DNA of 63,969 nucleotides, the filler included, from an uncultured Methanosarcinales archaeon (GTDB taxonomy: Archaea > Nanobdellota > Nanobdellia > Woesearchaeales > GW2011-AR9), in the NCBI GenBank assembly GCA_964434885.1. It is 5 parts of 5 records of this genome, joined end to end, with 100 filler letters (N's around TTAATTAATTAA, not from the genome) between each part and the next. Parts side by side here need not be neighbours in the genome. Positions count along the whole stretch, not along the records: positions 1 to 14,584 come from CAYSWQ010000019.1; positions 14,685 to 29,027 come from CAYSWQ010000020.1; positions 29,128 to 43,305 come from CAYSWQ010000021.1; 2 more parts are not named here. The stretch is one strand, 5' to 3'. Position 1 is the stretch's first letter; every line of letters begins with the position of its first letter. Below the pieces are notes generated by a model. The model saw nothing but the letters and a program-made list of their open reading frames with translations, was not told where the DNA came from and did not search any database. This document shows positions 11,142 through 42,999 of the stretch, piece after piece. The position numbers and the translations under genes were made by a program.

Positions 11142-11825
11142 TTAAGAAAAAGTGTTTATTTCTCTCCAAATATCAATTTTCTTCAAATTTTTTGGTTGAT
11201 TTGTTCCAATCAATTCAATCCATTTTGAAAAATTATTATGTCCATTAAGATCTAAAAGATTAATTATGTTATAACCTTTTATTAAACGAGAATCATTAAC
11301 TTTATAATCAAAAGTTTTAGCTACCTTAAAACCATTCTCTTCCAAAATATTAGAAATATCTTCCATTAATGATCTACTTTTTGAACAACCCGTGATTATT
11401 GGATAATGGCCTTTTCTTAATTTAAAAGAAAAGTCAGTGTCAGATACTCCCTTAATAAAAGAAAACAATAATTTTTTGTCATTATAGAAAATTTTTGGAA
11501 CTCTAAGATTGTTTTTGGGACTTTTTGTTAATCCGACATCATTCAAAAGAAAGTTGACTAAATTTTTTGACCAAATATTAATTCCATAAATTCTATTTGT
11601 ACTCATTAATTTTGGTGATACATCAATGTTAAAAAGTTTTTTAAAAAGAGGAGCTACAACAGAATCATAAAATTCTTTTTCATCTTTTGGATTCCCTCCG
11701 CAATTAACAAGATATTCGTACTTTGCTTCTCTAATACCTATATGTCCATCTCCAACTAATACACCACATAGATAAGCCAACTCTTCATTTATTTCAGGAA
11801 TATTTATTTTCTTTAATGTGCTCAT
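11142..11825 (-). CDS. Free-standing two-motif LAGLIDADG endonuclease (LAG1)
   Basis: LAYLCGVLVGDG and FIKGVSDTDFS motifs; no intein splice residues; ATG at 11825. Confidence 0.85.
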   Translation of the reverse strand: MSTLKKINIPEINEELAYLCGVLVGDGHIGIREAKYEYLVNCGGNPKDEKEFYDSVVAPLFKKLFNIDVSPKLMSTNRIYGINIWSKNLVNFLLNDVGLTKSPKNNLRVPKIFYNDKKLLFSFIKGVSDTDFSFKLRKGHYPIITGCSKSRSLMEDISNILEENGFKVAKTFDYKVNDSRLIKGYNIINLLDLNGHNNFSKWIELIGTNQPKNLKKIDIWREINTFS

Positions 11826-11878
11826 TTTTATTAAAAAAATACTTCTTTTTCTCAAAAATAAAATAAATAGAAAAAATA

Positions 11879-11915
11879 TATAAATTCTACCTGGACTTGT
11901 CTACTTGTCCACTAC
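11879..11915 (-). promoter_or_regulatory. Shared promoter element, copy 1 (GGACAAGT-RGACAAGT repeat followed by TATA box)
   Basis: GTAGTGGACAAGTAGACAAGTCCAGGTAGAATTTATA; 32/37 identical to 23154-23190. Confidence 0.7.
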
Positions 11916-11927
11916 TCAATAAGTAAG

Positions 11928-11950
11928 AAAAAGGAAGGAAAAATCCTTCC
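11928..11950 (-). terminator. Hairpin plus U-tract after the initiator tRNA
   Basis: GGAAGGA-(4)-TCCTTCC followed by TTTTT on the minus strand. Confidence 0.55.
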
Positions 11951-11956
11951 AAATTA

Positions 11957-12059
11957 TAGCGGAGAGTGGATTTGAACCACTGATCTTTACCCGAAAAACA
12001 CATTGTGATTTTCTCCGGGTTATGGGCCCGGCAAGGACTCCAAACTCCTCCACTCCGCT
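11957..12059 (-). tRNA. Initiator tRNA-Met(CAU) with 28-nt intron at 43/44 (11987-12014)
   Basis: A1-U72, AGCGGAG/CTCCGCT acceptor, CCGGG/CCCGG anticodon stem, TTCAAAT T-loop; splice motif ACCC-GG^A...GGGT-AA^A. Confidence 0.92.
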
Positions 12060-12158
12060 GTAACACTTAAAGAATTACACTCATTTATAAAAGTTCTTGT
12101 AAAAATTAACTCATTAGAATCAATAACATTTATATAATCAAAACATTTAATATTTCAA

Positions 12159-13094
12159 ATGGCAAAAAAGAGGAGCAATAAAAAAGTAGTTTCTAAACGC
12201 AGTAAAACAAAAAAAATTGTATTATTAATTTTAGCTTTAATTGTATCTATCTTCTTTATCATCCCTTTATTCTTCAGTTTATTTAATGGGACCAAATTGG
12301 GCAATGTTGCTTTAATCTCTGTAAATGGTGTAATCATGGGAGGGGATGGTGGAGGCTCGTTAGGACAAACTATTGCTTCTTCAAAAACAATTGTTAGTTT
12401 TCTAGAAGATGCCGAAAAAAGAACCAATGTTAAAGCCATTCTTTTAGAAATAAATTCTCCAGGTGGAGGAGCAGTTGCTTCTGATGAAATAGCTTCTCAA
12501 ATAAAATCAATGAAAAAACCAGTGGTTTCAGTAATTAGAGAAGTTGGAGCTTCCGGAGGTTATTGGATTGCTTCAGCAACAGATCATGTTATTGCTAATC
12601 GTATGTCTATCACTGGTAGTATCGGAGTAATTAGTTCTTATTTAGAATTTAGTGAATTAATGAAAGAATATGGTGTTGGTTATGAAAGATTAATTGCTGG
12701 TAAATACAAAGATGTCGGAACACCATTTAGAAAATTAGAAGTTGAAGAAAAACAATTATTACAAGGAAAAATTGACAAAATTCATGATTTCTTTATCAAA
12801 GAGATTTCAGCTAACAGAAAATTGAAAGAAAGTGAAGTTAAAAAAGTAGCAACTGGAGAATTCTTTTTAGGAGTAGAAGCAAAAAATTTAGGTTTAGTTG
12901 ATGAACTAGGAAATAAGAAAACTGCTGAAAACTACTTAAAAAAGAAACTAGCATTAAAAGAAATCAATTATGTTAAATACGAAACTAAAAAAAGTTTGTT
13001 ATCTTCTTTAATGGGAGTTATCTCCCAAAACTTCTTTAAGATTGGAGAAGGAATTGGTTCTGGTTTGGTTAAAAACCAAATCTCTTGGATTTAA
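12159..13094 (+). CDS. sppA: Signal peptide peptidase SppA (S49)
   Basis: N-terminal TM; INSPGG, ASGGYWIA, TGSIGV, GKYKD. Confidence 0.93.
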   Translation: MAKKRSNKKVVSKRSKTKKIVLLILALIVSIFFIIPLFFSLFNGTKLGNVALISVNGVIMGGDGGGSLGQTIASSKTIVSFLEDAEKRTNVKAILLEINSPGGGAVASDEIASQIKSMKKPVVSVIREVGASGGYWIASATDHVIANRMSITGSIGVISSYLEFSELMKEYGVGYERLIAGKYKDVGTPFRKLEVEEKQLLQGKIDKIHDFFIKEISANRKLKESEVKKVATGEFFLGVEAKNLGLVDELGNKKTAENYLKKKLALKEINYVKYETKKSLLSSLMGVISQNFFKIGEGIGSGLVKNQISWI

Positions 13095-13133
13095 ATACAT
13101 AACTTATTTAAACTAAAATTCTAAATCAATTTT

Positions 13134-13499
13134 ATGATTCAAGAATACAATAAATTAGTCAGAGACAAAATCCCAGAAATTATTCGGGCAGATAATAAAA
13201 CACCTTACACACACAAAGTTTCAGGATCTGAATTAGAAGATGCTTTACAAAAAAAATTAACAGAAGAAATTAGAGAATTTCGAAAATCTAGAACTATGGA
13301 AGAATTAGCAGATATTTTAGAAGTTGTAGAAGCATTAATTCAAATTAATCACGAATATATGCCAGAAAGAACAAGAGTATATAGTATAGCTAATAACTAC
13401 AATATAACAAAAATGGAATTAGAATCAATCAGAGCAAATAAAGCAAAAGAAAGAGGTACTTTTTCTCAAGGAATAATTCTAGAATATGTAGAATATTAA
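13134..13499 (+). CDS. MazG-like NTP pyrophosphohydrolase
   Basis: YNKLVRDKIPEII, KLTEE, EELADILEV, KAKERGTF. Confidence 0.85.
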   Translation: MIQEYNKLVRDKIPEIIRADNKTPYTHKVSGSELEDALQKKLTEEIREFRKSRTMEELADILEVVEALIQINHEYMPERTRVYSIANNYNITKMELESIRANKAKERGTFSQGIILEYVEY

Positions 13500-14584
13500 A
13501 CCTTCTCGCCATAAATAAAAATATGTTGCCAAAACAATCCTCTTTTCTTTACTATTTTCACTTTTAAATTAGCTGCATTAAACCATCTTTTTAATTTTCT
13601 CTCATCGCTGATCCAAGGTACATTAGGAATGATATGAAAAAATTTATCATAATCCAAAATAACAATTTTAGAACCCTTCCTCATTTTTCTACTCATGTCT
13701 TTCAAAACTTGCTTAGGTTTTTGTAAATAAGAAAAAATACCTGTGGAAATAATAACATCGAAATGAGGTACTTTTCGTTTCGGTTTAAAATTTATTAATG
13801 AATCAACATGAAAGAATTCCAAATGCTTATATCGATTCAACTGTTTTTCTGTAATATCTACATTATGATCTAAGACATCTGTAACATAAACTCTTCCCCT
13901 AGGTAAAACTTTTTTAGTTAATCTCCTAGTCAATGCTCCAGAAGAACAACCATATTCTAAAACTCTTTTATTTTTCAAATTCCCAGCTAACAAAAAAACT
14001 CTTTTTCTCAAACCAAAAGGAAAAAATAAATTTTCAAAAATAATTAGCAAGTAAGTTAATTTAGCATTAACTTTTTTTATCGCCGGAGCACTATAATACA
14101 TCTCGATTAAAAAATAAATTGGAATTCCCAACACAATTAAAGAAATTCCTAATTTCAAAATTTCATAAGCCCCATGTGTTTCTTTTAACCACATATAAAT
14201 CAAAAACAACATAAACAAAGATACAATAATTGGACCTACTTTCCCAAAAGGGGCAGTATAATGTCGATGGGCTCGAGGTTTTTTAAATCTCAAAACTACC
14301 ACACACAACAACACAAAAGCATACATTACTAAAACTAAAGGCACCAATAAATGTAACAACGTTGTATATGATCCTGCTCCAACAATAACTAAAATCGTAG
14401 TTAAAATTGTTTGGAAAAAAATTGCACGATGAGGTGTATTATTTTTATGGTGGATTTTAGCCATTTGAGTAAGAAATAATTTATCTTTCGCCATTGCTAA
14501 TAATAATCGCGGAGCTGAAACAATCCATCCAGCAACACTCCCAATAATCGCTAAATAAACTAAAATCGCAAAAATATCATTCCC
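13496..14584 (-). CDS. APC amino-acid permease fused to class I SAM methyltransferase (5' truncated by gap)
   Basis: Frame open to contig end: SAPRLLLAMAKD...TPHRAI and LR.KKP...YTAPFG, then VLEYGCSSG and FDVII. Confidence 0.8.
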   Translation of the reverse strand, partial: GNDIFAILVYLAIIGSVAGWIVSAPRLLLAMAKDKLFLTQMAKIHHKNNTPHRAIFFQTILTTILVIVGAGSYTTLLHLLVPLVLVMYAFVLLCVVVLRFKKPRAHRHYTAPFGKVGPIIVSLFMLFLIYMWLKETHGAYEILKLGISLIVLGIPIYFLIEMYYSAPAIKKVNAKLTYLLIIFENLFFPFGLRKRVFLLAGNLKNKRVLEYGCSSGALTRRLTKKVLPRGRVYVTDVLDHNVDITEKQLNRYKHLEFFHVDSLINFKPKRKVPHFDVIISTGIFSYLQKPKQVLKDMSRKMRKGSKIVILDYDKFFHIIPNVPWISDERKLKRWFNAANLKVKIVKKRGLFWQHIFIYGEKV

Positions 14585-14684
14585 NNNNNNNNNNNNNNNN
14601 NNNNNNNNNNNNNNNNNNNNNNNNNNNNTTAATTAATTAANNNNNNNNNNNNNNNNNNNNNNNNNNNNNNNNNNNNNNNNNNNN
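14585..14684. other. Artificial contig spacer
   Basis: N44-TTAATTAATTAA-N44. Confidence 0.98.
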
Positions 14685-14698
14685 AAGGAGCTGATGTC

Positions 14699-15625
14699 TT
14701 GGTAGATGGTTCCGCTGACCTAGCGAGATTCCTTAAAGTAAGTCCAATTTTAGTTGGATTAACAATCGTTGCTTTTGGAACTTCTCTACCAGAATTCATT
14801 GTTAGTTTATTTGCAGTTCTTGGAGGTAGTGCTGATCTTTCTATCGGAAATATTGTGGGAAGTAATATTGCCAATATTGCTTTAGTATTAGGAATAAGTG
14901 CTTTATTTGTTCCATTAGTAGTTAAATCAACTACTTTAATGTATGAATTTCCTTTTATGTTAGTTTCCAGTTTCTTATTTCTAATCTTAGCAAATGATTC
15001 TTATTTATTTGGAAAAAACACTTTTTTCATTGGTAGATTGGACGGAATAATCTTACTAATCATCTTTGTAATTTTTATCATCTATGTTTACAAATCACTT
15101 AAAAACCAAAGAAATCAAGTTAATAATGACAAAAAAGTAAAAAAAGAATTTGCCGAAGAATATAAACATAAAAATCCATTATGGAAAAATACTGTTATGA
15201 TCATTACTGGAATCATTATGTTGGTTGTCGGAGGAAAACTGTTCGTTAATTCTGCCTCTGAATTAGCTAGATATCTTGGTTGGGGTGAAGCTTTTATTGG
15301 AGTAACTATTGTTGCTTTAGGAACTTCTTTACCAGAATTATTTACTTCTGCTGTAGCTGCTTACAAGAAAGAAGCAAGCATCGCTATTGGTAATATTGTT
15401 GGAAGTAATATCTTTAATATCTTAATGGTTTTAGGAATAGTTGGAATCATTAAACCAATCGCCATCAACCAATCGTTATTGTTTTTCGATGGAATGATCA
15501 TGATTGGAATTACTTTACTTTTCCTACTCTTTTCCACCATCGGCAAAAACCTCAAACGCTGGGAAGGAGTTGTCTTACTACTCACTTACTTTTCTTATAT
15601 TGGTTATTTAGTTTGGAGTTTGTAA
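14699..15625 (+). CDS. Calcium/sodium antiporter, CaCA family (5' truncated)
   Basis: Duplicated GTSLPE and GNIVGSNI alpha repeats. Confidence 0.93.
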   Translation: MVDGSADLARFLKVSPILVGLTIVAFGTSLPEFIVSLFAVLGGSADLSIGNIVGSNIANIALVLGISALFVPLVVKSTTLMYEFPFMLVSSFLFLILANDSYLFGKNTFFIGRLDGIILLIIFVIFIIYVYKSLKNQRNQVNNDKKVKKEFAEEYKHKNPLWKNTVMIITGIIMLVVGGKLFVNSASELARYLGWGEAFIGVTIVALGTSLPELFTSAVAAYKKEASIAIGNIVGSNIFNILMVLGIVGIIKPIAINQSLLFFDGMIMIGITLLFLLFSTIGKNLKRWEGVVLLLTYFSYIGYLVWSL

Positions 15626-15683
15626 ACATTTATAAAACAAAAACAATTTAACAACCTAGGTGGAATTCTAGAGATTTATTTAG

Positions 15684-16196
15684 ATGATAAGTGAAATAAT
15701 TGATGAATTTGATGGGATAATATTAATTCACCCGGAATGGTACTTAGATGATATATGTAAAGGAGAAGATTTTTTCCCAAAAGTAGATAATTATCTAATC
15801 GATCTTCAAAAAGCAAATAATGCCGTTCAGAAATCTAATTCTCAAGTGTTTATTCTTCCTAATGATTACTCTTTACTTAATCAAATGCCACCAGAAATAA
15901 CCGCTTCTTGGAAAATTTTAGGAAAAGACCAAGAATTTAAATTTTATACCACTCCAGATTTACCATTGCAAGAAATCAGTAAACAAACAAAAACACCTCT
16001 TTCTGATTTAAGATTCATTTATGGGGGAATGTTGACTTCTGCTTGTGTTTCTTCCTTTGCTATGAGATCTTCTGCTTCTTATGATGGACCTCATCCTTTT
16101 ATTAAACCTGCATCAATGGAATTAGAAGCCACTCAAAAAGCCAGTTATGGTTTTGTGCTAGAAGAACTATGTAGTGATTTTATTTTTAATAATTAA
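15684..16196 (+). CDS. Hypothetical protein, weak cysteine-hydrolase-like motif
   Basis: 170 aa; IYGGMLTSACV resembles the isochorismatase G..T..CV motif. Confidence 0.55.
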   Translation: MISEIIDEFDGIILIHPEWYLDDICKGEDFFPKVDNYLIDLQKANNAVQKSNSQVFILPNDYSLLNQMPPEITASWKILGKDQEFKFYTTPDLPLQEISKQTKTPLSDLRFIYGGMLTSACVSSFAMRSSASYDGPHPFIKPASMELEATQKASYGFVLEELCSDFIFNN

Positions 16197-16234
16197 AACT
16201 AAACCTTTAAATAAATATAAAATTTCTCAATGTT

Positions 16235-19096
16235 ATGGATATAGATTGGAATAAAATTCAAGCCAAATGGCAAAAGAAGTGGGAAAAAGAAGAACTAGGT
16301 AAAGCCACAATAAACAAAGACAAGCCCAAGTTTATGATGATCTTTGCTTATCCAGGTATCTCTGGATTCTTACATGTAGGCCATATGCGAGGTTTTTCTT
16401 ATACTGATGCTATTTGTAGGTATAAACGTTTAACTGGCCACCAAGTGCTTTATCCAGTTGGTACTCATGCTTCTGGTAATCAAGCTATTGCTTTTGCCAA
16501 TAAAGTAAAAAACAAAGATGAAGCTTGGATTAATTACCTTCTCAACAATGGCTGTCCAAAAAGTAAATTAAAAGAATTAGAACAACCAGAAAAAATTATA
16601 GAATATTTCAATGAAGTTTATGTTAACGATTATTGGAAGAAATTTGGTTTTCTTTGTGATTGGGACCGTTTTATTTGTACCAGTTATCCAGACTACCAGA
16701 AATTTATGCACTGGCAATTCAAAAAACTAATGGATAAAAATCTTTTAGTGCAAAAACCCTATTTTGCTACAGCTTGTATTAAATGTGGTCCAGTTGCTGT
16801 TGATCCTTCTGAAACCGACATCTCCAAAGGAGGTCATGCTGAAAAACAAGAATTTACTTTATTAAAATTCAAATTAAAACAAGAAAACAGCGAAGAACCA
16901 ATTTATCTGATTGCCGCTACTTTAAGACCAGAAACTGTCTTTGGTCAAACTAATCTTTGGATTAATCCAAGTGTTAAATATGTTAAAGTTAAAGTTGGAA
17001 TTGAATCTGATGAAAACCATAAAGATGAAACTTGGATTATGAGTCAAGCAGGAGCAGAAAAATTAGGATATCAAAAAGATGACGTAATGTTAGAAGAAGA
17101 TATCGATCCCAGAGAACTAATCGGCCAATATACAGAAGCTCCAGGAATCAACAAAAAAATAATTATCTTGCCTTCAAGACTATGCAATCCAAAAGTTGGA
17201 AGTGGTATTGTCACTTCTGTTCCTAGTGATGCCCCTTATGATTATATTGCTTTAAAGAAATTACAAGAAGATAAAAAAAGATGTGAAAAATTCGATTTAA
17301 ATTTCCAAGAAATAAATCAAATTAAATTAATTCCAATTATTAGATCTAAAGGCTACGAAGATTTTCCAGCGAAAGAAATTGTAGAGAAATTAAATATCAC
17401 TAGTCTTAAAGATACTGAAAAACTAGAACAAGCCACTCAAGAAATTTACAAAGCTGGATTTCATACAGGAGTAATGAGGGAAAATTGTGGTGAATATGCT
17501 GGAAAGAAAGTAATTGAAGCTAAAGAATTAATCAAAGAAAAACTTATCAACCAAAATAATGCTGATATCTTACATGATTTAAGTGAAGAAGTTATTTGTC
17601 GTTGTGGAGATAAAGTTATTATTAAAAGAATTGATGACCAATGGTTTATCAAATACTCAGATGGAGAATTAACTGAGCAAAGTAAACAACAAGTTCAAAA
17701 TATGGATATTTATCCTCACGAATACAAAGAAAATCTGCCTGGAATTTTAGATTGGTTTCAAGATCGAGCTTGTGTTAGACTAGGTAATTGGACTGGAAGT
17801 AAATTTCCTTTTGATGATAAATGGACTATTGAACCAATCAGTGATTCCACCCTCTACCCTAGCTACTATATAATTTCAAAATTTATTAACCAAAAACAAA
17901 TAAAAACCCAAGATTTAACTGAAGAATTTTTTGATTATGTTTTCCTCGGAAAAGGGGAACCTAAGAAAAATTGGAAGGAAATCAAAGAAGAATTTGATTA
18001 CTTTTATCCTTTAGATCTTAATTTAGGAGGAAAAGAACACAAAACAGTTCATTTCCCAGTTTTTTTAATGAATCACGTAGGAATTTTACCTCAAGAGAAA
18101 TGGCCTAAAGGGATTTTTGTTAATTGGTGGGTTACTGGAAAAGGTAGCAAAATTTCTAAATCTAAAGGGGGAGCAGTTCCTATTCCTGAGGCCATGGAAA
18201 AGTATGGTGTTGATGCTATGCGGTTATATTATGCCCATATTGGCAGTCCTCATGTTGATGTTATGTGGACTGAAGACATTGTCTTTAATTACAAAAGTAG
18301 CTTAGAAAGAACACTTGGCTTAATTACTGAATTAAAAAAGAAAGAAGGTTCTCGAAGTTTAATTGATGATTGGATTCTATCTAAAGTAAATGGCCATATC
18401 AAAAAAGCTAATCAAGTGATGGAAAATTTTGATTTAAGGGAATTAGCAACTATTGTGTATTACAATTTTTATGATGATTTGAGATGGTATTTACGAAGAG
18501 GAGGAGACAACCCCCAAATAATAAAAAAAGTAATTTCTATTTGGTGTAAATTAATGAATCCAATTACTCCTCATTTAAGCGAAGAATTAAATCAAGATAA
18601 ATCTCTTGTTTCCGCTGCTGAATGGCCAGAAGTAGACCAAGAAAGAATCAGTCTCAAAGCTGAAGCTGGAGAGGAAATGATCAAAAATACTTTAGTAGGT
18701 ATGAGAAAAGTAATTGAATTAGCAGGTTTAGAAAAACCAAACAAATTTACTTTGTTTGTAGCTGAGAAATGGAGATATGATTTTTTTAGCATAGTTAAAG
18801 GAGAGATTAGCAGAACTCGAAATGTTGGAGAGATAATTAGAAAAGTTCTTGAAAATGAACAACTTAAAACCAAAGGTAAAGAAATTAGCAAACTTGTTGG
18901 AATGTTGCTCAAAGATGTTTCTAAATTACCTAGTTTAGTTTTATCACAAGAAGAAGAATCGGAACTCATAAACTCTGCTCAAAAATTTCTAGAAAAAGAA
19001 TTTGCTTGTGAAATTAAAATAATTCTAGCAGAAGATAGTGATAGTTCTAAAGCTAAATCAGCAATCCCTGGGAAGGTTGGTGTTTTGGTTGAATAA
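16235..19096 (+). CDS. leuS: Leucine--tRNA ligase, archaeal type
   Basis: HVGH, ATLRPET, GIVTSVPSDAP, KISKSKG. Confidence 0.96.
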   Translation: MDIDWNKIQAKWQKKWEKEELGKATINKDKPKFMMIFAYPGISGFLHVGHMRGFSYTDAICRYKRLTGHQVLYPVGTHASGNQAIAFANKVKNKDEAWINYLLNNGCPKSKLKELEQPEKIIEYFNEVYVNDYWKKFGFLCDWDRFICTSYPDYQKFMHWQFKKLMDKNLLVQKPYFATACIKCGPVAVDPSETDISKGGHAEKQEFTLLKFKLKQENSEEPIYLIAATLRPETVFGQTNLWINPSVKYVKVKVGIESDENHKDETWIMSQAGAEKLGYQKDDVMLEEDIDPRELIGQYTEAPGINKKIIILPSRLCNPKVGSGIVTSVPSDAPYDYIALKKLQEDKKRCEKFDLNFQEINQIKLIPIIRSKGYEDFPAKEIVEKLNITSLKDTEKLEQATQEIYKAGFHTGVMRENCGEYAGKKVIEAKELIKEKLINQNNADILHDLSEEVICRCGDKVIIKRIDDQWFIKYSDGELTEQSKQQVQNMDIYPHEYKENLPGILDWFQDRACVRLGNWTGSKFPFDDKWTIEPISDSTLYPSYYIISKFINQKQIKTQDLTEEFFDYVFLGKGEPKKNWKEIKEEFDYFYPLDLNLGGKEHKTVHFPVFLMNHVGILPQEKWPKGIFVNWWVTGKGSKISKSKGGAVPIPEAMEKYGVDAMRLYYAHIGSPHVDVMWTEDIVFNYKSSLERTLGLITELKKKEGSRSLIDDWILSKVNGHIKKANQVMENFDLRELATIVYYNFYDDLRWYLRRGGDNPQIIKKVISIWCKLMNPITPHLSEELNQDKSLVSAAEWPEVDQERISLKAEAGEEMIKNTLVGMRKVIELAGLEKPNKFTLFVAEKWRYDFFSIVKGEISRTRNVGEIIRKVLENEQLKTKGKEISKLVGMLLKDVSKLPSLVLSQEEESELINSAQKFLEKEFACEIKIILAEDSDSSKAKSAIPGKVGVLVE

Positions 19097-19150
19097 ATTT
19101 ATAAAACAACTCAAAATCAAACATAAAGTGGTTTCTAGAGTTAGATTAAA

Positions 19151-23153: not shown

Positions 23154-23190
23154 TATATACTCTATCTGTACTTGTCCACTTGTCCACTAC
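23154..23190 (-). promoter_or_regulatory. Shared promoter element, copy 2
   Basis: GTAGTGGACAAGTGGACAAGTACAGATAGAGTATATA; 32/37 identical to 11879-11915. Confidence 0.7.
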
Positions 23191-29127: not shown

Positions 29128-29131
29128 AAGA

Positions 29132-32426: not shown

Positions 32427-32428
32427 AA

Positions 32429-36105: not shown

Positions 36106-36150
36106 GTAGTATCCCAAAAATTTTATATAAAAACCCAATTAATCAATCAA

Positions 36151-36831: not shown

Positions 36832-36908
36832 AAGTTATTACTTTCAAAGAGTAAAATATACAAAAAATTTATAAATCACCTTAACTATTAAACTTCTGGT
36901 GAATAAAT

Positions 36909-37859
36909 ATGACAGTAATAAGTGCAATGAAATTTAATGATTTTGAAGGGGCAATGGTAGCTGATGAACAATCTTCCGGTGGTGGAAGAAAATATGATCT
37001 GGCTGAAAAAATCCATGAATTCTCATGTCCAACATCCAAATTAATTGTTGGTGGATCTGGAACTGCAGATTTATTGTATGATTCCATTCTCCAATTTACT
37101 CAAACATTTCCTGAAAAACAGGACAAAGTACAAAATGCAGATAATTTTGTACAGTTTTTAGCTCATATTTTTACTCAAGTTACCCATAGCCATGTTGATG
37201 GTATTTTAAGATCCCGAAGTGGTCATTCATGGTTAGAATTTCAACAAGGATATATTATAACTGAGAATGGGAAAGAACCAATGGGAGAGAGACTACAGGC
37301 CGAATATGAGAAACTAAAAAATGAATTGTGGTCTCCAGAAAGCTTTTTGAACAGCTCCTTTTTAGCTTTAGCTTCTGATGTATCAGGTATTGAAATATAC
37401 TCAGTAAGTTTAGGTAGTACCAAACCAATGCCAGTAGCTAGACCTTATGCTGTTATTGGTAGTGGTAGTGACATGGCTGATCGGGAATTAATGGGGTTTT
37501 TCCAACCAATGACCAGAGAAGAAAGAAAAAATATTACTCCCGTTGAAGGAATTAAGGCATTACTGCAAGCAACTTATCAGGCTAGTACAGGAAATATTGG
37601 CGTCGGAGGAAGTCCAAATATTTATCTCCTTAATGCTGAAGGGAAAATAAGTAATCCCAGTGAAAATAGTTCAATATTGGCAAATGAAATAGTTAAAGGC
37701 AATCACAAAGGATTTTTGAGCAATGAATATACTAGTGCTGCTCTAGATAATCTACTTTTCAAAGGTCAAGATTTTAAAATCGCAGAGAAAAGTATGTGGG
37801 ATGCTGTTAAGGACAAAACTGCATTTGGTTTAATGCTTAGAAACTATAAAAAATATTAA
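36909..37859 (+). CDS. Proteasome beta-subunit-like Ntn hydrolase without propeptide
   Basis: MTVISA start (Thr1), ADEQ, EKI, GGSGTA, AVIGSGS, GVGG. Confidence 0.72.
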   Translation: MTVISAMKFNDFEGAMVADEQSSGGGRKYDLAEKIHEFSCPTSKLIVGGSGTADLLYDSILQFTQTFPEKQDKVQNADNFVQFLAHIFTQVTHSHVDGILRSRSGHSWLEFQQGYIITENGKEPMGERLQAEYEKLKNELWSPESFLNSSFLALASDVSGIEIYSVSLGSTKPMPVARPYAVIGSGSDMADRELMGFFQPMTREERKNITPVEGIKALLQATYQASTGNIGVGGSPNIYLLNAEGKISNPSENSSILANEIVKGNHKGFLSNEYTSAALDNLLFKGQDFKIAEKSMWDAVKDKTAFGLMLRNYKKY

Positions 37860-37860
37860 T

Positions 37861-38463
37861 TTATTTCTTATTCCTTCCCCTTTTCTTAACCAACTCAAAT
37901 CTATCTAAAACAGAAGCTGCATCACCATAATTTTCTTCATACCCTTCAATTACTTTCTCAAATACTTCAGGATAAACCTTATGATGTTTACTTTCTAAAG
38001 CTCGATCCAAAAGAAAAAGATCAACAGCTTTATCTTCTACTTTATCTGAAAAGAAACTTAACCCAAAATCAATAAGATTTAATTCTCCTGTTTCTTTATG
38101 TTTAATCATGTTTGAAGTAGTTAAATCTCCATGAATAATATTCTCTTGATGTAACTTAGCAATCTTCAAACCCATCTCTCTAGCTAAGATCTGAAAATCA
38201 TCTTCAATCACTTCTTTTAATTGTTCTCCTGGAACAAAATCCATGAAAATACTCATTCTTTTATCAGAAAATTCTTGCAAATGAGGTGCTGGAAAATTCA
38301 TCTCTTCTAATCTACTCAAAATTTTAGCTTCCCTTCTAGTTCTAAACTTTCTTAATGATTCATCTAATTGAGGTAAACGATAACTTTTGCTTACTCTTTC
38401 TTTCATTATTCTAGATTTATCTTGATAGATGATTGCTTCCGCGCCTTGTGCTATTTTTATCAT
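37861..38463 (-). CDS. bud32: KEOPS complex kinase Bud32
   Basis: QGAEA, RTRREAKIL, HGDLTTSN, IDFGL, EDKAVDL, KRGR. Confidence 0.95.
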   Translation of the reverse strand: MIKIAQGAEAIIYQDKSRIMKERVSKSYRLPQLDESLRKFRTRREAKILSRLEEMNFPAPHLQEFSDKRMSIFMDFVPGEQLKEVIEDDFQILAREMGLKIAKLHQENIIHGDLTTSNMIKHKETGELNLIDFGLSFFSDKVEDKAVDLFLLDRALESKHHKVYPEVFEKVIEGYEENYGDAASVLDRFELVKKRGRNKK

Positions 38464-38498
38464 CTAAAATAGAAAACTAATACTCTTTAAAAATGTTC

Positions 38499-39389
38499 TT
38501 ATAGATGTCTTGGAACTTGAGATACTACTTCAGATATTTTCTTTTCCCTAATTTCAATATCTCTTTTGGCCATAAATTCCATTAATCCAATTATCAATCT
38601 TCTTGTATGGCTCCCCTCTGAATAATCGTTTGGCACAATATCAAAAATCCGTTCATCTCTTCTTAACTGAATTGCTTGTTCTAGGGATTTTGGGTTTTCA
38701 GGATCATAAACTCCCAGACTAAATCCTTCCCCATCATTAACCCCTTTGAAACAAATAATATCATTTGGCCCATCAGCAACATAGATCATATTTCTAAATG
38801 GAACTCTTCTAAAATCATGCGGTACTGAGGCATTAACATCAATTTCCGGGTTAACATTACATCCTTTGTTAATCTGATGCAAGATGTTTCTTTTTCCAGC
38901 AGAATCAATGACTCTGGCTATTTTACTAATTTCTCCTTTTTCATTTTCAATAAATTCTGCACCGAAAATATTATCAATATAATCTCCAAATTTTCCTTCA
39001 ATGGTTCTTTTCATCCCACTACTAACAATATATTGTTCTACAGAAATACCTGCTGAACCAAATTTATCTTCTATTGTTCCTTTGATATATTCAAAGAAAT
39101 CTGGCAAACCTGGGAAAACGTCTAATTTATTTCCCAATTCAAATAGTTTTTGATTACTTAGCCCAGGAAATTTTCCTTCTTTAACATAATCTAACATTAA
39201 ATTTAAGTATGCTGGATCACCATCTAGATTAATTCTTTGTTTTCTAGCTTCTTCTATTCTTCTTCCATTTTCTGTCCAAAATTCTTCTCCTGAGATACCA
39301 AATTCATCAAAAAGAACATGTTGCATGTATTTTGGAGTTAATGTTTTATCTGAATCATAAATAACAGCAATAATTCCTCGTTCTAACAT
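38499..39389 (-). CDS. HAD-superfamily hydrolase
   Basis: YDSDKTL, IVSSG, IYVADGPND. Confidence 0.85.
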   Translation of the reverse strand: MLERGIIAVIYDSDKTLTPKYMQHVLFDEFGISGEEFWTENGRRIEEARKQRINLDGDPAYLNLMLDYVKEGKFPGLSNQKLFELGNKLDVFPGLPDFFEYIKGTIEDKFGSAGISVEQYIVSSGMKRTIEGKFGDYIDNIFGAEFIENEKGEISKIARVIDSAGKRNILHQINKGCNVNPEIDVNASVPHDFRRVPFRNMIYVADGPNDIICFKGVNDGEGFSLGVYDPENPKSLEQAIQLRRDERIFDIVPNDYSEGSHTRRLIIGLMEFMAKRDIEIREKKISEVVSQVPRHL

Positions 39390-39544
39390 ATATACTTGAG
39401 AAGTTATTTGCTTTATTAATCTTCTGAAATACAAACTCCTTCAATTTTTATTAAAAAAAATAAATTCTCTTTAGCAAATCGAAAAAGAGTTTAAGAAAAT
39501 CTAGGAGAAACCTTTTTAAAATAGTTGTCTTTTAACCAACCTAC

Positions 39545-39629
39545 GCCCCTGTGGCTTAGTGGTATAGCGCGACCTTGGTAATATCCAACAAACAGGTCGA
39601 GGTCCCGAGTTCAACTCTCGGCAGGGGCT
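39545..39629 (+). tRNA. tRNA-Thr(GGU) with 13-nt canonical 37/38 intron (39581-39593)
   Basis: GCCCCTG/CAGGGGC acceptor, CGACC/GGTCG anticodon stem, CCGAG-TTCAACT-CTCGG T arm. Confidence 0.92.
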
Positions 39630-39672
39630 TATTTATAATAAAATTAATAAACCATAAATAAATTCTCATTCT

Positions 39673-39906
39673 ATGCAAAAAATCACTCCAATTAGTATTC
39701 TCGAAATAGGAGAGTGGTATGAAACATTTTTAAAAACTGGTAGAATTGAAAAGTATCCAGACAAGATCTTTGTTACAGATACATTGGATGGTAAGATAAA
39801 TGGTTATGATCCACGAATAAACATACTCAAAGGTAATTTTTTTTATCACGAAGCTCTTGAAGAAGTATTTAAAATGATTGGTGGTTACACTGAATATCGA
39901 TCCTAA
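39673..39906 (+). CDS. Hypothetical protein
   Basis: 77-aa ORF overlapping the next gene. Confidence 0.5.
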   Translation: MQKITPISILEIGEWYETFLKTGRIEKYPDKIFVTDTLDGKINGYDPRINILKGNFFYHEALEEVFKMIGGYTEYRS

Positions 39907-40474
39907 TATTTTTGGCTCTCAAACTAAAACTAATGAAATTATATTGTTATTAAAAGATAAAAAACCAGTAGTCAGACAAGGTTTTTATGATTCAGAATTT
40001 AAGAAAGTAAAAGAATTCTGTGAAAAAAATAATTTATTTTTGGTTAAATCAAAATTCAAAGTATTATTAGATAATCAAAATTATTCCAACAAAGGTATTA
40101 GAGTTAAAGAAGATCATCCCCAAGGAATGTATTTTGTTTATATTTCTAAAAACGAAGAGCAAGCTTGGTTAACTAGTTATTATGAACTCATTCAAGATCA
40201 CAACCAGTTAGGATTAATTCTAGGATATCCAGAATGTTGTGTGGATTTCTTTTGTCAAAACTTCAACCAAAAAAAAACTAACTTGGAACTTACTCCTACC
40301 AACCCTTGGACTAATTTAAGTAAGCGTACTAAAGATTGTGTATTGTTATCTCACTTTCCTTGTAAATCTGATTGTGAAGCAAGCATTAATCTAGCGAAGA
40401 AGTACTTTTCGGTTTTACAAGAAAACAATACTGGAGATACTAAAAAATTAATTAGAAATTTAGAAAATTATTAA
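39878..40474 (+). CDS. DUF483-like protein
   Basis: LGLILGYPECCVDFF and HFPCKSDC. Confidence 0.65.
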   Translation: MVVTLNIDPNIFGSQTKTNEIILLLKDKKPVVRQGFYDSEFKKVKEFCEKNNLFLVKSKFKVLLDNQNYSNKGIRVKEDHPQGMYFVYISKNEEQAWLTSYYELIQDHNQLGLILGYPECCVDFFCQNFNQKKTNLELTPTNPWTNLSKRTKDCVLLSHFPCKSDCEASINLAKKYFSVLQENNTGDTKKLIRNLENY

Positions 40475-40559
40475 GTATAATCAATCAGTTATTGATTAAC
40501 CAATAACCACTAAAAAATAACAAGAATTATTTATATATAAAAATAAAATTACAATTTCA

Positions 40560-41489
40560 ATGAAAAAAAAGTTTAAGTTATTTGATAAATCTAAATTAGT
40601 TTTAATGTTAATCTTAGTTTGTTTTTCTGTTATTACTGGTTGTGCTGATGAAGAACTTAAAACACAGTCATCGAAATGTAATATAGAAGAATCTAGTATT
40701 TTAAACATAAGAAAAGTAACTTTGAAAAAAGTATCCAATGCTTCCGGACTAGGACTAAAAATTGTTAATGGCAAACCTGTAATTATTACCATTGATGACA
40801 TCAGGAGAAAAGAAAATAAGGAAAACCGACCAAGTTTTACCTATTCTAACCCTGCTAATGGAAAAGTAATCAGAACTGAAAATTTTCCCACTGGTAATTT
40901 AGAAGGAGTTACTTACAAAGATGGTAAATTAGCGATTTTACATGGAGATGAAGATATTGATAACAAATATTTTATTACCTGGAACAATCGCAAAGTACAA
41001 CTTGATTTAAGTAAAGTTCAACCAATTCTGGCCAAAAATGTTGGTGTAACTTTAGAAGGATTGACTTCTGATAAAAATGGTTGGAACACTTTAGCATCCT
41101 TTTTTAACTTTAAACAAGGTATCCAGTATGAAATGTACATTATCCAGTTTGACGTAAATGGAAAACAAACTGGAATCATTGGCCCACTTAATCAAAATGG
41201 AAAAAAACTTTCCGATCATGGAGGAGCTCTAGCGAAATATAAAGACACTTTTTTAATTGGGTCTTTCCATAAGAAAAATATTTCTTTGGTTGACAAAGAT
41301 GGAAATATCAAAAGACAAATAAAATCTCCTGATCAACGTATTGAGGGAATGGCTTTTGATCCAGACAAATGCCAACTCTACTTAGTTCGTGAATGTGTTG
41401 GCATAGGAAGCGATTGTCCAGGAGAAGAACCTGAAGATGCCCAAGGAAAAGAAGTTCCAATGTACATAATCACTTTTGAAAAAGAATAA
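40560..41489 (+). CDS. Lipoprotein, probable beta-propeller
   Basis: VITGC lipobox; repeated ASGL, LEGVT, LEGLT, IEGMAFD blades. Confidence 0.7.
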   Translation: MKKKFKLFDKSKLVLMLILVCFSVITGCADEELKTQSSKCNIEESSILNIRKVTLKKVSNASGLGLKIVNGKPVIITIDDIRRKENKENRPSFTYSNPANGKVIRTENFPTGNLEGVTYKDGKLAILHGDEDIDNKYFITWNNRKVQLDLSKVQPILAKNVGVTLEGLTSDKNGWNTLASFFNFKQGIQYEMYIIQFDVNGKQTGIIGPLNQNGKKLSDHGGALAKYKDTFLIGSFHKKNISLVDKDGNIKRQIKSPDQRIEGMAFDPDKCQLYLVRECVGIGSDCPGEEPEDAQGKEVPMYIITFEKE

Positions 41490-41510
41490 AATTCTTTTGA
41501 TTTTAAAAAA

Positions 41511-41593
41511 AATACGCCAGCGCCCAACTATAAACGTTGGGTGCAGCGCTCCACTTCCTACGGCGTTGAAACCGAGGTAATACGCCAGCGCCC
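41511..41593. repeat. 15-bp direct repeat of the tRNA-Ser 3' end around a 53-nt GC-rich spacer
   Basis: AATACGCCAGCGCCC at 41511-41525 and 41579-41593. Confidence 0.85.
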
Positions 41594-41717
41594 GGATTTG
41601 AACCGGGATATCCAAAAGGAAACAAGCTTTCCAGGCTTGCGCAGTATTCTCCGACGTAAGTAAGGAGAGTTCAAAAAGTCTCCAGACTTTTTCGCCACCA
41701 GATTGTGCCACGCTGGC
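41583..41717 (-). tRNA. tRNA-Ser(GGA) with 51-nt D-loop intron near 19/20 (41647-41697)
   Basis: GCCAGCG/CGCTGGC acceptor, G73, CAAGC-CTGGAAA-GCTTG anticodon arm, long variable arm; relaxed BHB ATCT-GG^T-GGCG...CGTC-GGAG-AA^T. Confidence 0.9.
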
Positions 41718-41766
41718 GTAAATACCTTAATTAAAGAACTCTTTTTTAAATATTTTGGCAAAATAA

Positions 41767-42672
41767 TTAATAACTAGACAGTAATTTAGAGAATGTTTCT
41801 TTTTTATAATTCAAAAGACAAGGTATTTTATATTTATTCAATATTTTAAAATCATGTAAATTATAAATTCTTAATGATTTGTTGTTTACATTTGTTCTTT
41901 CAGGAAATGTCTCTTTAACAGATCTTAACCCAATTATCTGTAATGCTTTTTTAAGTTGGTTTATCAGTGTGATGTTGTTACAAGCAAAATCAACCATTTT
42001 ACGATTATGTTTTTTACAATAATTAACATTCCCATCCCCCGCAAAAAACCCTTTAAGTATCAAAGCCAATCTAGTTTTATCTTTTTTTTCTAAACATTCA
42101 GTGAATATTTTTTGGATAAAACTAAGAAAAAACGATCTAAATACTACGGAAGAAAAAAATAAATGAACACAACCATGTTGGCCAGTAGAAATTGGTACTT
42201 TTTTATGTAATGTTCCGGTAAGATAAAAACTTGTTTTTCTAAGAGTATTTTTATTTAATTCTAAATTTTTAATCCAGAAGTTAATTGCTTCTTGAGGTTT
42301 TCTTTGAAGATTTCTATTAAGTCCAATTTTCCAACTTAATTGCATTTTAGAAATTAAAAATTTATTCAAAAAATCACAAATCGGGTCCAACATTTTTTGG
42401 TCACTACCAGCAAAAGAAATTGAACCATCATGAAAATATTTAGCATTGAAATTAACTCTAGTGTATCCTTCTGCTAAGTATAAACCAATAGCAATAAAAT
42501 CCTGTTCGTCTAAAATTATTTTTTGAGGAATTTTTATTTCTTTTTTTGATTTTTTACAAGATAAAACAAAATAAATGTCTTCATCATTTTTTACTCTTAA
42601 TTTTTTATTATTTCCTTGTTTAGGTATGACTTCTTTTGGAATATATTTTTTGAGTTTAACTAAAGTCTTCAT
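41767..42672 (-). CDS. Free-standing two-motif LAGLIDADG endonuclease (LAG2)
   Basis: IAIGLYLAEG and ILKGFFAGDG motifs; GAGGTG RBS. Confidence 0.85.
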   Translation of the reverse strand: MKTLVKLKKYIPKEVIPKQGNNKKLRVKNDEDIYFVLSCKKSKKEIKIPQKIILDEQDFIAIGLYLAEGYTRVNFNAKYFHDGSISFAGSDQKMLDPICDFLNKFLISKMQLSWKIGLNRNLQRKPQEAINFWIKNLELNKNTLRKTSFYLTGTLHKKVPISTGQHGCVHLFFSSVVFRSFFLSFIQKIFTECLEKKDKTRLALILKGFFAGDGNVNYCKKHNRKMVDFACNNITLINQLKKALQIIGLRSVKETFPERTNVNNKSLRIYNLHDFKILNKYKIPCLLNYKKETFSKLLSSY

Positions 42673-42725
42673 ATTCACCACCTCTAAACTTTATCCCCCT
42701 GATTAGAAGTTTGGAGATTTTTTAG

Positions 42726-42821
42726 AAAAAGAGGTTAGGGAACAAAACTTCTTAACTGATTTCCGTGTCGTATTTTTTGACCGAAAATCAGATTAATAGA
42801 TATTTTGTGTGGCCTCTTTTT
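42726..42821 (-). ncRNA. Long imperfect stem-loop between tRNA(CAU) and LAG2
   Basis: Nested pairings AAAAAGAGG/CCTCTTTTT, ACAAAA/TTTTGT, TTAA/TTAA, CTGATTTTCG/CGGAAATCAG, GTC/GAC. Confidence 0.5.
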
Positions 42822-42833
42822 TATTATAATAAG

Positions 42834-42999
42834 TGGCGGTGCCGAGATTTGAATTCCTGGATAAAATATCTCTCAGGACCTCTACGTAACCCAGTTAAAT
42901 TGAGTTTGTCATCGAACTAAAGTTCTCATCGCTCAATCATATGAGCCTCGCTTGTCATTAAAGACATGTAGCGCTATAACCAGGCTTAGCTACACCGCC
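42834..42999 (-). tRNA. tRNA(CAU), probably elongator Met, with three introns: 30/31 (42947-42967), 37/38 (42888-42939), 53/54 (42854-42871)
   Basis: GGCGGTG/CACCGCC acceptor; each intron has a 4-bp helix and two 3-nt bulges; removal gives a 75-nt cloverleaf; Ile2 identity not excluded. Confidence 0.9.

Follow-up and report, generated by a model that had tools for sequence, protein, structure and literature searches.

Free-standing LAGLIDADG endonuclease genes adjoin particular tRNA genes, often intron-bearing, in a Woesearchaeota-type archaeon and its relatives

The phage T4 endonuclease SegB, a GIY-YIG enzyme, is described as recognizing 27 bp that include an 11-bp motif of the T-psi-C stem-loop, and as driving its own inheritance together with that of flanking tRNA genes (PMC2330249). 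For SegB-type Seg/Mob enzymes, the cut site is reported to lie some way from where the gene itself is inserted, and the same account outlines collaborative homing, wherein an intron interrupts the target of an enzyme and is proposed to travel with the free-standing nuclease gene (PMC2988022). Fungal mitochondrial mORFs are presented as endonuclease ORFs inserted at the end of an essential gene (Allomyces atp6; Glomus atp6, atp9, cox2 and nad3), where they bring a foreign copy of the gene end and leave the native end as a downstream remnant (PMC3630166). In archaea, the mobile-element model of tRNA gene disruption (Sugahara 2012) describes for the Caldiarchaeum tRNA-Thr gene a tRNA fragment beside an inserted element, along with a newly gained intron (PMC3293823), and the idea attributed to Randau and Soll is that an intron protects its tRNA gene from integration, that is, from an attacker acting on DNA (PMC4090602).

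The two LAGLIDADG genes described here, LAG1 and LAG2, resemble each of these systems in part. As with SegB and other Seg/Mob enzymes, a free-standing nuclease gene with a promoter of its own lies among tRNA genes. Unlike SegB, the LAG enzymes are LAGLIDADG proteins of cellular archaeal chromosomes, form many tRNA-specific clades, and have as partners tRNA genes that are single-copy, essential and often interrupted by EndA-spliced introns. F-CphI with psbA and mobE with the nrdB intron are reportedly examples of collaborative, or trans, homing, and they share with our loci a free-standing nuclease next to a gene with an ORF-less intron. However, those partner introns are self-splicing group I introns of phage protein-coding genes, whereas the introns here are 18 to 52 nt long, protein-spliced and located in archaeal tRNA genes, and their link to the nuclease is statistical in two lineages and broken in others. 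The layout of the fungal mORFs recurs at tRNA ends, in that displaced tRNA-end copies lie beyond the far side of the LAG gene at loci L051, L060, L065, L067 and L075-L077. The fungal hosts are protein-coding genes, whereas these are tRNA genes, and at the LAG1 and LAG2 loci no displaced remnant of the partner tRNA was found, tRNA-Ser alone having one. I-DmoI, I-Tsp061I, PI-PfuI and the TliVMA intein, the best structural matches of the LAG1 model, have the same two-motif single-chain design but reside within rRNA introns or inteins. Finally, the Caldiarchaeum model likewise has a tRNA fragment and a new intron by an inserted element, and the Randau-Soll idea likewise treats introns as protection of tRNA DNA; there the element encodes a recombinase and the attackers are integrating viruses or plasmids, whereas at our loci a homing endonuclease would take the attacker's part. 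A full-text literature search found no description of free-standing LAGLIDADG genes docked on intron-bearing tRNA genes.

The window, meaning the whole 63,969-nt stretch of DNA that was analyzed, comprises five contigs of one 1.07-Mb genome of 31% GC (G000), with N spacers between them, and the feature pairs under study lie on contigs C19 and C21. The host is a tiny marine archaeon of the Woesearchaeota-type DPANN. An initial annotation had read from these two contigs two co-oriented pairs of a LAG gene and an intron-bearing tRNA gene; the coordinates, strand, gaps of about 130 and 160 nt and intron-bearing tRNA-Ser were borne out (Table 1), with the LAG1 first ATG 132 nt past the end of iMet and the LAG2 ATG 162 nt past the end of tRNA(CAU).

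Table 1. Features of the LAG1 and LAG2 loci, in window positions; all features of both loci are on the minus strand.
Feature	Position	Strand	Basis and remarks
tRNA-iMet(CAU)	11958..12059	-	Read from sequence; spliced form is ARAGORN tRNA-Met(cat); aligned with orthologues
iMet variable-loop intron, 28 nt	11985..12012	-	Position ambiguous, 43/44 to 45/46; without strict bulge-helix-bulge motif
Putative terminator-like hairpin, then T-run, just 3' of iMet	11925..11950	-	By reading
Tandem 8-nt boxes, spacer and TATA-like element (LAG1's own promoter region)	11877..11917	-	Pattern search
LAG1, free-standing monomeric double-motif LAGLIDADG endonuclease gene	11142..11855	-	237 aa; ATG at 11825
Elongator-type tRNA(CAU), three introns	42835..42999	-	By reading; with three introns out, ARAGORN tRNA-Met(cat)
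tRNA(CAU) intron 1, 21 nt, position 30/31	42947..42967	-	Strict hBHBh' motif, alone among the five; splicing check
tRNA(CAU) intron 2, 52 nt, canonical 37/38	42888..42939	-	By reading and ARAGORN splicing check
tRNA(CAU) intron 3, 18 nt, T-stem/T-loop junction (53/54), LAG2-facing	42854..42871	-	By reading and splicing check
LAG2 leader hairpin overlapping its ribosome-binding site	42682..42716	-	Upstream sequences compared by eye
LAG2, free-standing double-motif LAGLIDADG endonuclease gene, second family	41767..42681	-	304 aa; ATG at 42672
tRNA-Ser(GGA)	41584..41717	-	By reading; two alternative excisions each give ARAGORN tRNA-Ser(gga)
tRNA-Ser(GGA) insertion, about 52 nt, D-arm/position 26-27	~41640-41691	-	By reading
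Degenerate second tRNA-Ser T-arm and 3' acceptor strand, then T-run	41512..41542	-	About 55 nt past the gene

Default tRNA finders miss the iMet, CAU and Ser genes, as ARAGORN at its default settings found 0 tRNAs in the window and Rfam at gathering score matched a tRNA-Thr (39545-39629) only. Cloverleaves emerge for all three genes once one, three and one introns, respectively, are removed in silico. The strict bulge-helix-bulge motif was present in one of the five introns, and the canonical tRNA-Thr intron, taken as a control, failed the strict test too. The iMet gene has A1-U72, an anticodon stem with three G-C pairs, and C33, with discriminator A at 11957. Its insertion is missing from nine 74-nt intron-less orthologues and is thus shown directly, although the 43/44 site proposed earlier is ambiguous up to 45/46. 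A homologous insertion with an identical 3' end occurs in the iMet genes of G015 and G033. Intron 2 of tRNA(CAU) carries, by eye, what we take to be box C/D-like motifs, and similar introns are held by the CAU tRNAs of L058, L063 and L073-L077. The second tRNA-Ser segment, which has a 10-nt exact match to the gene (blastn-short E 0.34), may be a displaced tRNA-Ser end.

Judging from their sequences and predicted structures, LAG1 and LAG2 are intact, active-looking, I-DmoI-like double-motif LAGLIDADG proteins of two families. LAG1 has Pfam and NCBIfam matches, and LAG2 matches Pfam LAGLIDADG_3 (E 6e-8) and has 30 homologue clusters. In 24 LAG1-family and 21 LAG2-family sequences, the two LAGLIDADG motifs are conserved together with the two catalytic acids; G35-D36-G37 is invariant and T140-D141 is present in at least 90% of sequences in the LAG1-family alignment (A2), and E68 and D213 are invariant in that of the LAG2 family (A1). 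No sequence-level match to any solved chain was found. The AF2 model of LAG1 (pLDDT 91.5) has as its top Foldseek matches the TliVMA intein nuclease domain, I-Tsp061I and I-DmoI, with I-DmoI chains at a target-normalised TM of 0.72-0.79 and an rmsd of about 3.4-3.8 A, and that of LAG2 (pLDDT 91.1) matches the bI3 maturase, I-AniI and I-DmoI.

As had been proposed, neither gene lies inside an intron or intein, since each tRNA is complete alone and LAG1 has a terminator-like hairpin, promoter boxes and a TATA element upstream. The promoter-element pattern has 21 matches at two or fewer mismatches, six of them exact, versus four for the reversed pattern. A leader of about 170 nt is common, in a by-eye comparison, to LAG2 and two further LAG genes of the genome (C2 and C7).

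The association of LAG genes with tRNA genes is well beyond chance, family-wide and tRNA-specific. The intact LAG1-family ORFs examined number 37, of which 5 are from this genome and the other 32 are spread over 19 relatives. None is more than 138 nt from a tRNA gene, the median gap is 0, and the 5 own copies can be set against a background in which, among the 1113 ORFs of this genome that reach 100 aa, 42 (3.8%) lie within that distance of a tRNA. The link with tRNA genes proposed by the initial annotation is real. At 36 of the 37 free-standing LAG1-family places in the 19 relatives, a tRNA lies no more than 270 nt from the match, and seven of eight LAG2-family loci adjoin a CAU tRNA, every time on its 3' side. 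In a tree from a quick search only, supported clades (SH-aLRT 96-100) have one tRNA partner each, namely iMet, Gln(UUG), a GGCCCCG-type and four more.

These findings are probably best explained if the LAG1 and LAG2 families are homing-endonuclease genes docked on particular tRNA genes and spreading by intronless homing. The enzyme would recognize about 20 bp inside the partner tRNA gene of genomes without the nuclease gene and cut there, and recombinational repair would copy the nuclease gene plus the adjoining tRNA stretch into the cut genome, as for SegB. The resident tRNA allele would escape cutting through an altered target, and cleavage, immunity and co-conversion are the steps that we infer. 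The alteration would depend on lineage: at iMet, at Gln and plausibly at the CAU T-loop here, it would be a short EndA-spliced intron facing the nuclease, and in some other lineages the cassette would bring a substitute tRNA end and leave the old one behind. The displaced tRNA-end copies that flank some cassettes point to this alternative means of preserving an intact tRNA. The G000 iMet gene is itself a mosaic, as its first 39 nt are nearest the sister genome G013 (34/39), whereas over the final 24 nt it agrees with G033 and G030 at 24/24 and with G013 at just 18/24. Identity between LAG pairs is at least that of IleRS from the same genomes (61% versus 49% for G000-G015), which could reflect selection instead of transfer.

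A stricter form of collaborative homing, wherein only the intron-less allele is cut, the intron is the sole immunity, nuclease and intron always move together, and tRNA genes acquire non-canonical introns chiefly in this way, is the strongest competitor, and we consider it unlikely. In its favor, and also in that of the preferred reading, in two lineages one non-canonical, LAG-facing intron accompanies the presence of a LAG gene. The iMet gene is interrupted between positions ~45 and 54 in 5/5 LAG-adjacent and 0/11 LAG-free alleles, although the G033 LAG gene abuts a different tRNA, 225 nt from iMet, and its assignment is ambiguous. The tRNA-Gln gene has a 5'-half intron in 6/6 LAG-adjacent and 8/19 LAG-free alleles, with the LAG gene always on the intron's side (Fisher 0.02, a value overstated by the non-independence of relatives as samples). 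Sister genomes G000/G013, so placed by a one-gene species tree, and G016/G020 differ in LAG gene and intron together, and the tRNA 3'-end remnants of L075 and L077 start in the T-loop, either level with the position of CAU intron 3 or 1 nt to its 3' side. However, intron-less tRNAs adjoin LAG genes at L059, L078, L079 and perhaps L049, and partners at L058, L063, C51 and C39 have a canonical or far-side intron only; the expected correlation finds support for iMet and Gln and none as a general rule. Many intron-rich relatives are without any LAG1-family gene. The same introns at LAG-free orthologous loci, named beforehand as speaking against the proposal, are absent for iMet and present for Gln, where the 9/10 intron also occurs in five LAG-free genomes; the same pattern would arise if the nuclease gene were fixed and then lost. 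Nor is intron load in G000 higher beside LAG genes than elsewhere, and its tRNA lengths are similar near LAG genes and away from them.

Rather less probable is that selfish nucleases or relics gather where tRNA flanks tolerate insertion or lend expression and termination signals, with cut sites elsewhere and introns coincidental. This would suit the orientation of LAG genes relative to the tRNA, which varies within clades, the introns that most G000 tRNAs carry whatever their neighbors, and the 22 of 37 ORFs that overlap the tRNA, several of which have their final codons and stop supplied by tRNA DNA. It is harder to reconcile with clades that keep one tRNA partner across genera, five of seven also keeping the same tRNA side, with tRNA-end remnants that bracket some cassettes, or with the promoter of LAG1 and the terminator-like hairpin before it.

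We regard as improbable that the proteins are domesticated and non-mobile, acting as LAGLIDADG-fold binders or nucleases in a recombination-repair program or in tRNA-gene control, even though LAG1 shares the tandem-box promoter with four or more further LAG genes and the catalytic residues are under conservation. Against this, distribution is patchy: the multi-copy LAG1 family occurs in 20 of 41 genomes, in varying copy number and with stops in five copies, and no free-standing LAG2 homologue was found among 40 relatives, the only matches being weak and lying within two ORFs, each about 1650 aa long (G002 and G017). Furthermore, tRNA partners differ between paralogues, and empty syntenic sites exist, as sppA-iMet synteny is kept in G005, G009 and G010, where iMet is intron-less and a LAG gene is absent. 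That the loci are leftovers of integrase-type elements at tRNA att sites, or a defense nuclease against invaders with intron-less tRNA or att copies, is very improbable. In its favor are tRNA 3'-end repeats (tRNA-Ser here, and an iMet repeat in G030 around a 2.2-kb insert that includes a RelA/SpoT-like gene); against it, the insert between conserved features is about 0.9 kb with the LAG gene as its only content, and no integrase-like ORF was noticed in the flanks read. Nothing supports the defensive role suggested earlier.

Intronless homing with a lineage-specific change of target thus remains our preferred reading, and the docking of LAG genes on tRNA genes may help to explain how archaeal tRNA genes gain odd introns.

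The source genome (1.07 Mb, 66 contigs, 92% complete, 31% G+C; G000 below) contributes contigs C19, C20, C21, C22 and C53 to the window, set apart by N spacers. By the public names of LAG2 homologues, it belongs with marine DPANN archaea of the Woesearchaeota type. The initial annotation had described a tRNA-iMet gene followed about 130 nt on by a free-standing LAGLIDADG gene (LAG1), and a tRNA(CAU) gene followed about 160 nt on by a second such gene (LAG2) and then by tRNA-Ser. The coordinates bear out both arrangements, and all of these genes lie on the minus strand.

Coordinates of the tRNA and LAGLIDADG genes at the two loci
Feature	Position	Strand	Remarks
tRNA-iMet	12059-11958	-	
LAG1	11855-11142	-	ATG 11825, 132 nt 3' of tRNA-iMet
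tRNA(CAU)	42999-42835	-	
LAG2	42681-41767	-	ATG 42672, 162 nt 3' of tRNA(CAU)
tRNA-Ser(GGA)	41717-41584	-	

ARAGORN run without introns finds no tRNA across the window, and at gathering score the sole tRNA match of Rfam there is tRNA-Thr. Once the proposed insertions are excised (gene positions 48-75 of iMet; 33-53, 61-112 and 129-146 of tRNA(CAU); approximately 27-78 of tRNA-Ser), ARAGORN returns cloverleaves for Met(cat), Met(cat) and Ser(gga). The iMet insertion is missing from nine orthologues, and at the level of sequence comparison these intron-less genes prove it to be an insertion. A strict bulge-helix-bulge search recovered one of the five introns, the first of tRNA(CAU), and decides nothing because the canonical intron of the tRNA-Thr control was missed as well. 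A gene for the tRNA-splicing endonuclease (EndA) is found in the genome. The insertions are 18-52 nt long, Rfam gives no group I intron match in the window at gathering score, and the self-splicing group I element of collaborative homing is therefore not what these insertions represent. Genome-wide, 15 tRNAs exceed the Rfam cut-off. A custom intron-tolerant scan that uses acceptor pairing and the T-arm and permits a T-loop intron yields 35 hits and 34 candidate genes, two or more of which are dubious, and no match in a shuffled genome. Most tRNA genes of G000 carry one to three insertions, and seven have one in the T-loop.

As the initial annotation also held, the nucleases lie outside introns and inteins: the tRNAs on either side are complete, and LAG1 has upstream signals of its own. 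Each flanking tRNA closes its own acceptor stem, which excludes a placement of the LAG ORFs inside very large tRNA introns or between the two halves of a split tRNA.

The tRNA genes have several further features. The canonical intron of tRNA(CAU), at 42888-42939 (-), has box C/D-like motifs, and similar introns are present in CAU tRNAs of at least seven loci fetched from other genomes (L058, L063 and L073-L077). Its appearance is that of an ancient guide-RNA intron with no tie to the nuclease. The initiator tRNA has C33 instead of U33 (near 12025, minus strand), as do those of the related genomes G013 and G008, and the remaining 13 iMet genes compared have U33. At G000:C9:14155-14329, a second T-arm with an identical 3' acceptor strand lies about 100 nt beyond a 72-nt tRNA-Val(UAC) gene.

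LAG1 (237 aa) and LAG2 (304 aa) have no BLASTP-level relation to one another, and each has two LAGLIDADG helices with a terminal catalytic Asp or Glu. Among 24 aligned LAG1-family sequences, G35-D36-G37 is invariant and T140-D141 is present in at least 90%; among 21 aligned LAG2-family sequences, E68 and D213 are invariant. AF2 models (pLDDT 91.5 for LAG1, 91.1 for LAG2) predict the twice-repeated, pseudo-symmetric alpha-beta-beta-alpha-beta-beta-alpha fold for both. At E<=0.001 the LAG1 and LAG2 models match at least 140 and at least 105 PDB chains, respectively, and the top matches listed for either model comprise only LAGLIDADG nucleases, maturases and intein nucleases. The LAG1 model resembles the nuclease domain of the TliVMA intein, I-Tsp061I and I-DmoI, and that of LAG2 resembles the bI3 maturase, I-AniI and I-DmoI. 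A sequence search of solved-structure chains gave no match for either protein. Pfam scores LAG2 at 33.2 bits against a cut-off of 22.5 and LAG1 at only 16.6 bits, and the intein portion of an RFC model matches LAG1 with an E of 5e-7. Judged by the models, both proteins are of the monomeric, two-motif LAGLIDADG homing endonuclease type, for which site-specific double-strand cutting of a target of 14-40 bp is predicted.

The genome holds 11 LAGLIDADG_3 matches. By phmmer, LAG1 forms a family with paralogues on C11, C51 and C3, joined weakly by one on C39 (E 1.7e-4 against LAG1), and all five abut a tRNA gene, a different one each: iMet, a tRNA with a GGCCCCG acceptor, Lys, Cys/Arg and His. Homologues occur in 20 of the 41 genomes of the order (G000 counted) and are multi-copy, with stops in five copies. 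With four long intein-type ORFs excluded, the relatives contain 38 free-standing places, of which all except the one on G002:C8 were fetched. The match has a tRNA no more than 270 nt away at 36 of these 37; at the remaining place, a pseudogene, the distance is 875 nt. Intact ORFs also number 37 (32 from relatives and five from G000), and the tRNA lies at a median distance of 0: none of the ORFs is further than 138 nt from it, 30 are no more than 50 nt away, and 22 overlap it. As background, G000 has 1113 ORFs of >=100 aa, of which 42 (3.8%) lie this close to a tRNA. The adjacency is real and non-random, and it extends through the family.

The LAG2 family is sparser. Across 40 relatives there is no free-standing homologue, and only weak matches occur inside two ORFs of approximately 1650 aa (G002 and G017); metagenomes yielded 30 homologue clusters. 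When species genomes were searched, LAG2 alone gave no match and an alignment query gave eight loci, seven of them clear. In five of these seven a CAU tRNA lies directly 5' of the LAG gene, those of L076 and L077 having been read by eye after ARAGORN and Rfam missed them. The other two clear loci have an intron-less, convergent tRNA-Met(CAU) at 9 nt and a tRNA-Asn. Counting the window, a CAU tRNA is the neighbour at seven of eight loci, and the nuclease gene is constantly on its 3' side. The pair of tRNA(CAU) and tRNA-Ser hosts different LAG families, namely the LAG2 type in the window and in L073 and the LAG1 family in L063 (G008:C136) and L058 (G005:C10). A LAG2-like ORF with a weak tRNA-like Rfam match at the end of a contig (C1) was dropped when reading of the sequence revealed no tRNA.

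Supported clades of LAG genes (SH-aLRT 96-100 in a quick maximum-likelihood tree) each keep one tRNA partner across genera, with iMet, Gln(UUG), a GGCCCCG-type and a GGGGA[TC]G-type tRNA among the partners, along with three more. The side of the tRNA on which the LAG gene lies is constant in five of seven clades, though its orientation flips. Synteny of sppA and iMet is retained in G005, G009 and G010, where iMet is intron-less and the nuclease gene absent. The distribution is thus patchy and polymorphic for presence and absence, among genomes that represent different genera rather than strains. Marine metagenome runs (X1-X8) contain the LAG1 locus. In sequence identity, LAG pairs equal or exceed the isoleucyl-tRNA synthetases (IleRS) of the same genome pairs (61% vs 49%, 62% vs 46%, 58% vs 52% and 55% vs 48%).

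As with genes of the Seg/Mob type, expression signals of their own are found outside any intron or intein: upstream of LAG1 there are tandem boxes with a TATA element, along with a hairpin of terminator-like form. Co-transcription with the tRNA as the cause of adjacency was rejected because of this hairpin and promoter and because orientation flips within clades. We infer, from the tRNA-specific clades and from the tRNA-end remnants described below, that the neighbouring tRNA gene would be cut in genomes that are free of the nuclease.

The element before LAG1 is a pair of tandem 8-nt boxes, a spacer and a TATA element at 11877-11917 (-). Four or more further LAG genes have it upstream as well (on C3, C2 and C7, with a degenerate version on C39), as do several other genes, with sites at 23170-23184 (-) in the window and on contigs C2, C3, C7, C33, C39 and C50 of G000; the pattern has 21 matches with <=2 mismatches, versus four for the reversed pattern. 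LAG2-family genes of other genomes have their own tandem-box versions. LAG2 itself shares a leader of approximately 170 nt with two unrelated LAG genes (C2 and C7). The shared leader ends in a hairpin, at LAG2 within 42682-42740 (-), that overlaps the ribosome-binding site; the LAG2 copy begins about 25 nt past the tRNA and is without tandem boxes. Behind one tandem-box promoter lies a 390-aa protein (G000:C2:45369-46541, minus strand) in which a LAGLIDADG domain is combined with a Cro/C1-type HTH and a winged helix. It could have been domesticated as a regulator of the WhiA kind, perhaps one acting on the tandem-box regulon. Two identical copies of a 408-aa LAGLIDADG ORF lie 5.4 kb apart (G000:C15:10573-11799 and 15942-17168) and stem either from duplication in tandem or from a repeat in the assembly; the first copy immediately precedes a ribosomal protein L11-like gene.

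The initial annotation had proposed that each nuclease cuts the intron-less tRNA allele, that the short intron confers immunity, and that both co-convert. All five iMet alleles with a LAG gene 3' of them are interrupted between about positions 45 and 54, versus none of 11 LAG-free alleles, the case of G033 being ambiguous since its LAG gene abuts another tRNA. Three of the five alleles (G000, G015 and G033) carry the insertion in the variable loop, and the other two (G039 and G031) carry it at the T-loop 53/54 junction. At tRNA-Gln(UUG) the LAG gene is constantly 5', and all six adjacent alleles have a 5'-half intron (five at 9/10, one in the D-loop), versus eight of 19 LAG-free alleles, the other 11 having none (uncorrected Fisher p = 0.02). 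On the IleRS tree, introns and LAG genes are patchily distributed, with two sister pairs that differ in both together. The iMet gene of G000 is a mosaic: its first 39 nt match the sister G013 at 34 of 39 positions, and its last 24 nt are identical in G033 and G030 and match G013 at 18 of 24. Beside LAG2, the CAU intron at 53/54 falls within 1 nt of the start of the displaced 3'-end remnants behind LAG2 homologues (L075 and L077).

These associations are consistent with immunity. Against it stand the intron-less tRNAs next to LAG genes at L059, L078 and L079, and the partner tRNAs of L058, L063, C51 and C39, which have only canonical or far-side introns. Nor are the introns confined to LAG-bearing loci, given that the Gln 9/10 intron is present in five LAG-free genomes. 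The LAG1 family is often absent altogether from intron-rich relatives, tRNA lengths in G000 are alike beside and away from LAG genes, and the number of Rfam-detectable tRNAs per genome has no link by eye to the presence of the family. An automated parse of intron positions, reliable for only about 26 of 37 partner tRNAs, placed a non-canonical intron on the LAG side in about 16-17, versus roughly one third expected from G000, and is too coarse to carry weight. Intron-based immunity is plausible from these comparisons in some lineages, and is not general.

A second type of association involves displaced tRNA ends. Four of the 37 LAG1-family loci (L051, L060, L065 and L067) have an exact 12-19 nt copy of the partner tRNA end on the far side of the LAG gene, and at L075-L077 a short tRNA 3'-end remnant and a T-run, read by eye, follow the LAG stop codon. 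The LAG1 and LAG2 loci of the window have no partner-tRNA-end remnant or far-side duplicate, and each insert contains a single LAG ORF. Only tRNA-Ser in the window has a second 3' end, a degenerate T-arm and 3' acceptor strand at 41512-41542 (-), about 55 nt past the gene and right before a T-run, which may be the displaced end of an earlier insertion. A separate case is found in G030 (L035/L045; C1, about 83.0-85.3 kb), where the 3' end of an intact intron-less iMet recurs 2.2 kb downstream as a copy of approximately 30 nt (27 nt by BLAST). This copy is an att-type duplication, and the insert it brackets has no LAG gene and a RelA/SpoT-like main ORF.

In working, the tRNA-docked genes come closest to T4 SegB, a nuclease whose gene stands free within a tRNA cluster and whose 27-bp site includes the T-psi-C motif (PMC2330249). 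SegB-family proteins have a GIY-YIG domain, whereas the LAG fold and motifs are those of LAGLIDADG enzymes; by analogy, then, the LAG proteins would be SegB-like in working and are not members of that family. For the link to introns the closest model is collaborative homing (PMC2988022). The tRNA ends at L051, L060, L065, L067 and L075-L077 share the layout of fungal mitochondrial mORFs, which bring a substitute gene end (PMC3630166). A full-text literature search of main article texts returned no account of archaeal tRNA genes with LAGLIDADG genes docked on them; the single paper combining the key terms concerns group I introns in rRNA (PMC6125680).

The LAG genes are best read, on sequence evidence, as tRNA-targeted free-standing homing endonucleases with predicted cleavage activity. 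A tentative and rather doubtful extension makes such nucleases a general driver of the fragmentation of tRNA genes in archaea. In it, cutting of uninterrupted tRNA genes would select, at the cut sites, for substitute tRNA ends and for short introns spliced by proteins; co-conversion would spread both, and the introns would remain once the nuclease gene had decayed. If true, the extension would account for the many non-canonical introns found in DPANN archaea, and possibly for those of other archaea. In practical terms, LAG loci flag tRNA genes that standard finders miss.

The origin of non-canonical archaeal tRNA introns is an acknowledged open question, and a 2026 preprint treats their route of arrival as still open (10.64898/2026.10.13.758758). 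Because of its constant docking on tRNAs, its tRNA-specific clades and its correlation with introns in the part of the tRNA that faces it, this nuclease family is a concrete, bench-testable candidate agent for intron gain. Under the reading, intronless and collaborative homing would no longer be limited to phages and organelles and would also take in the chromosomes of cellular archaea and introns that are spliced by proteins.
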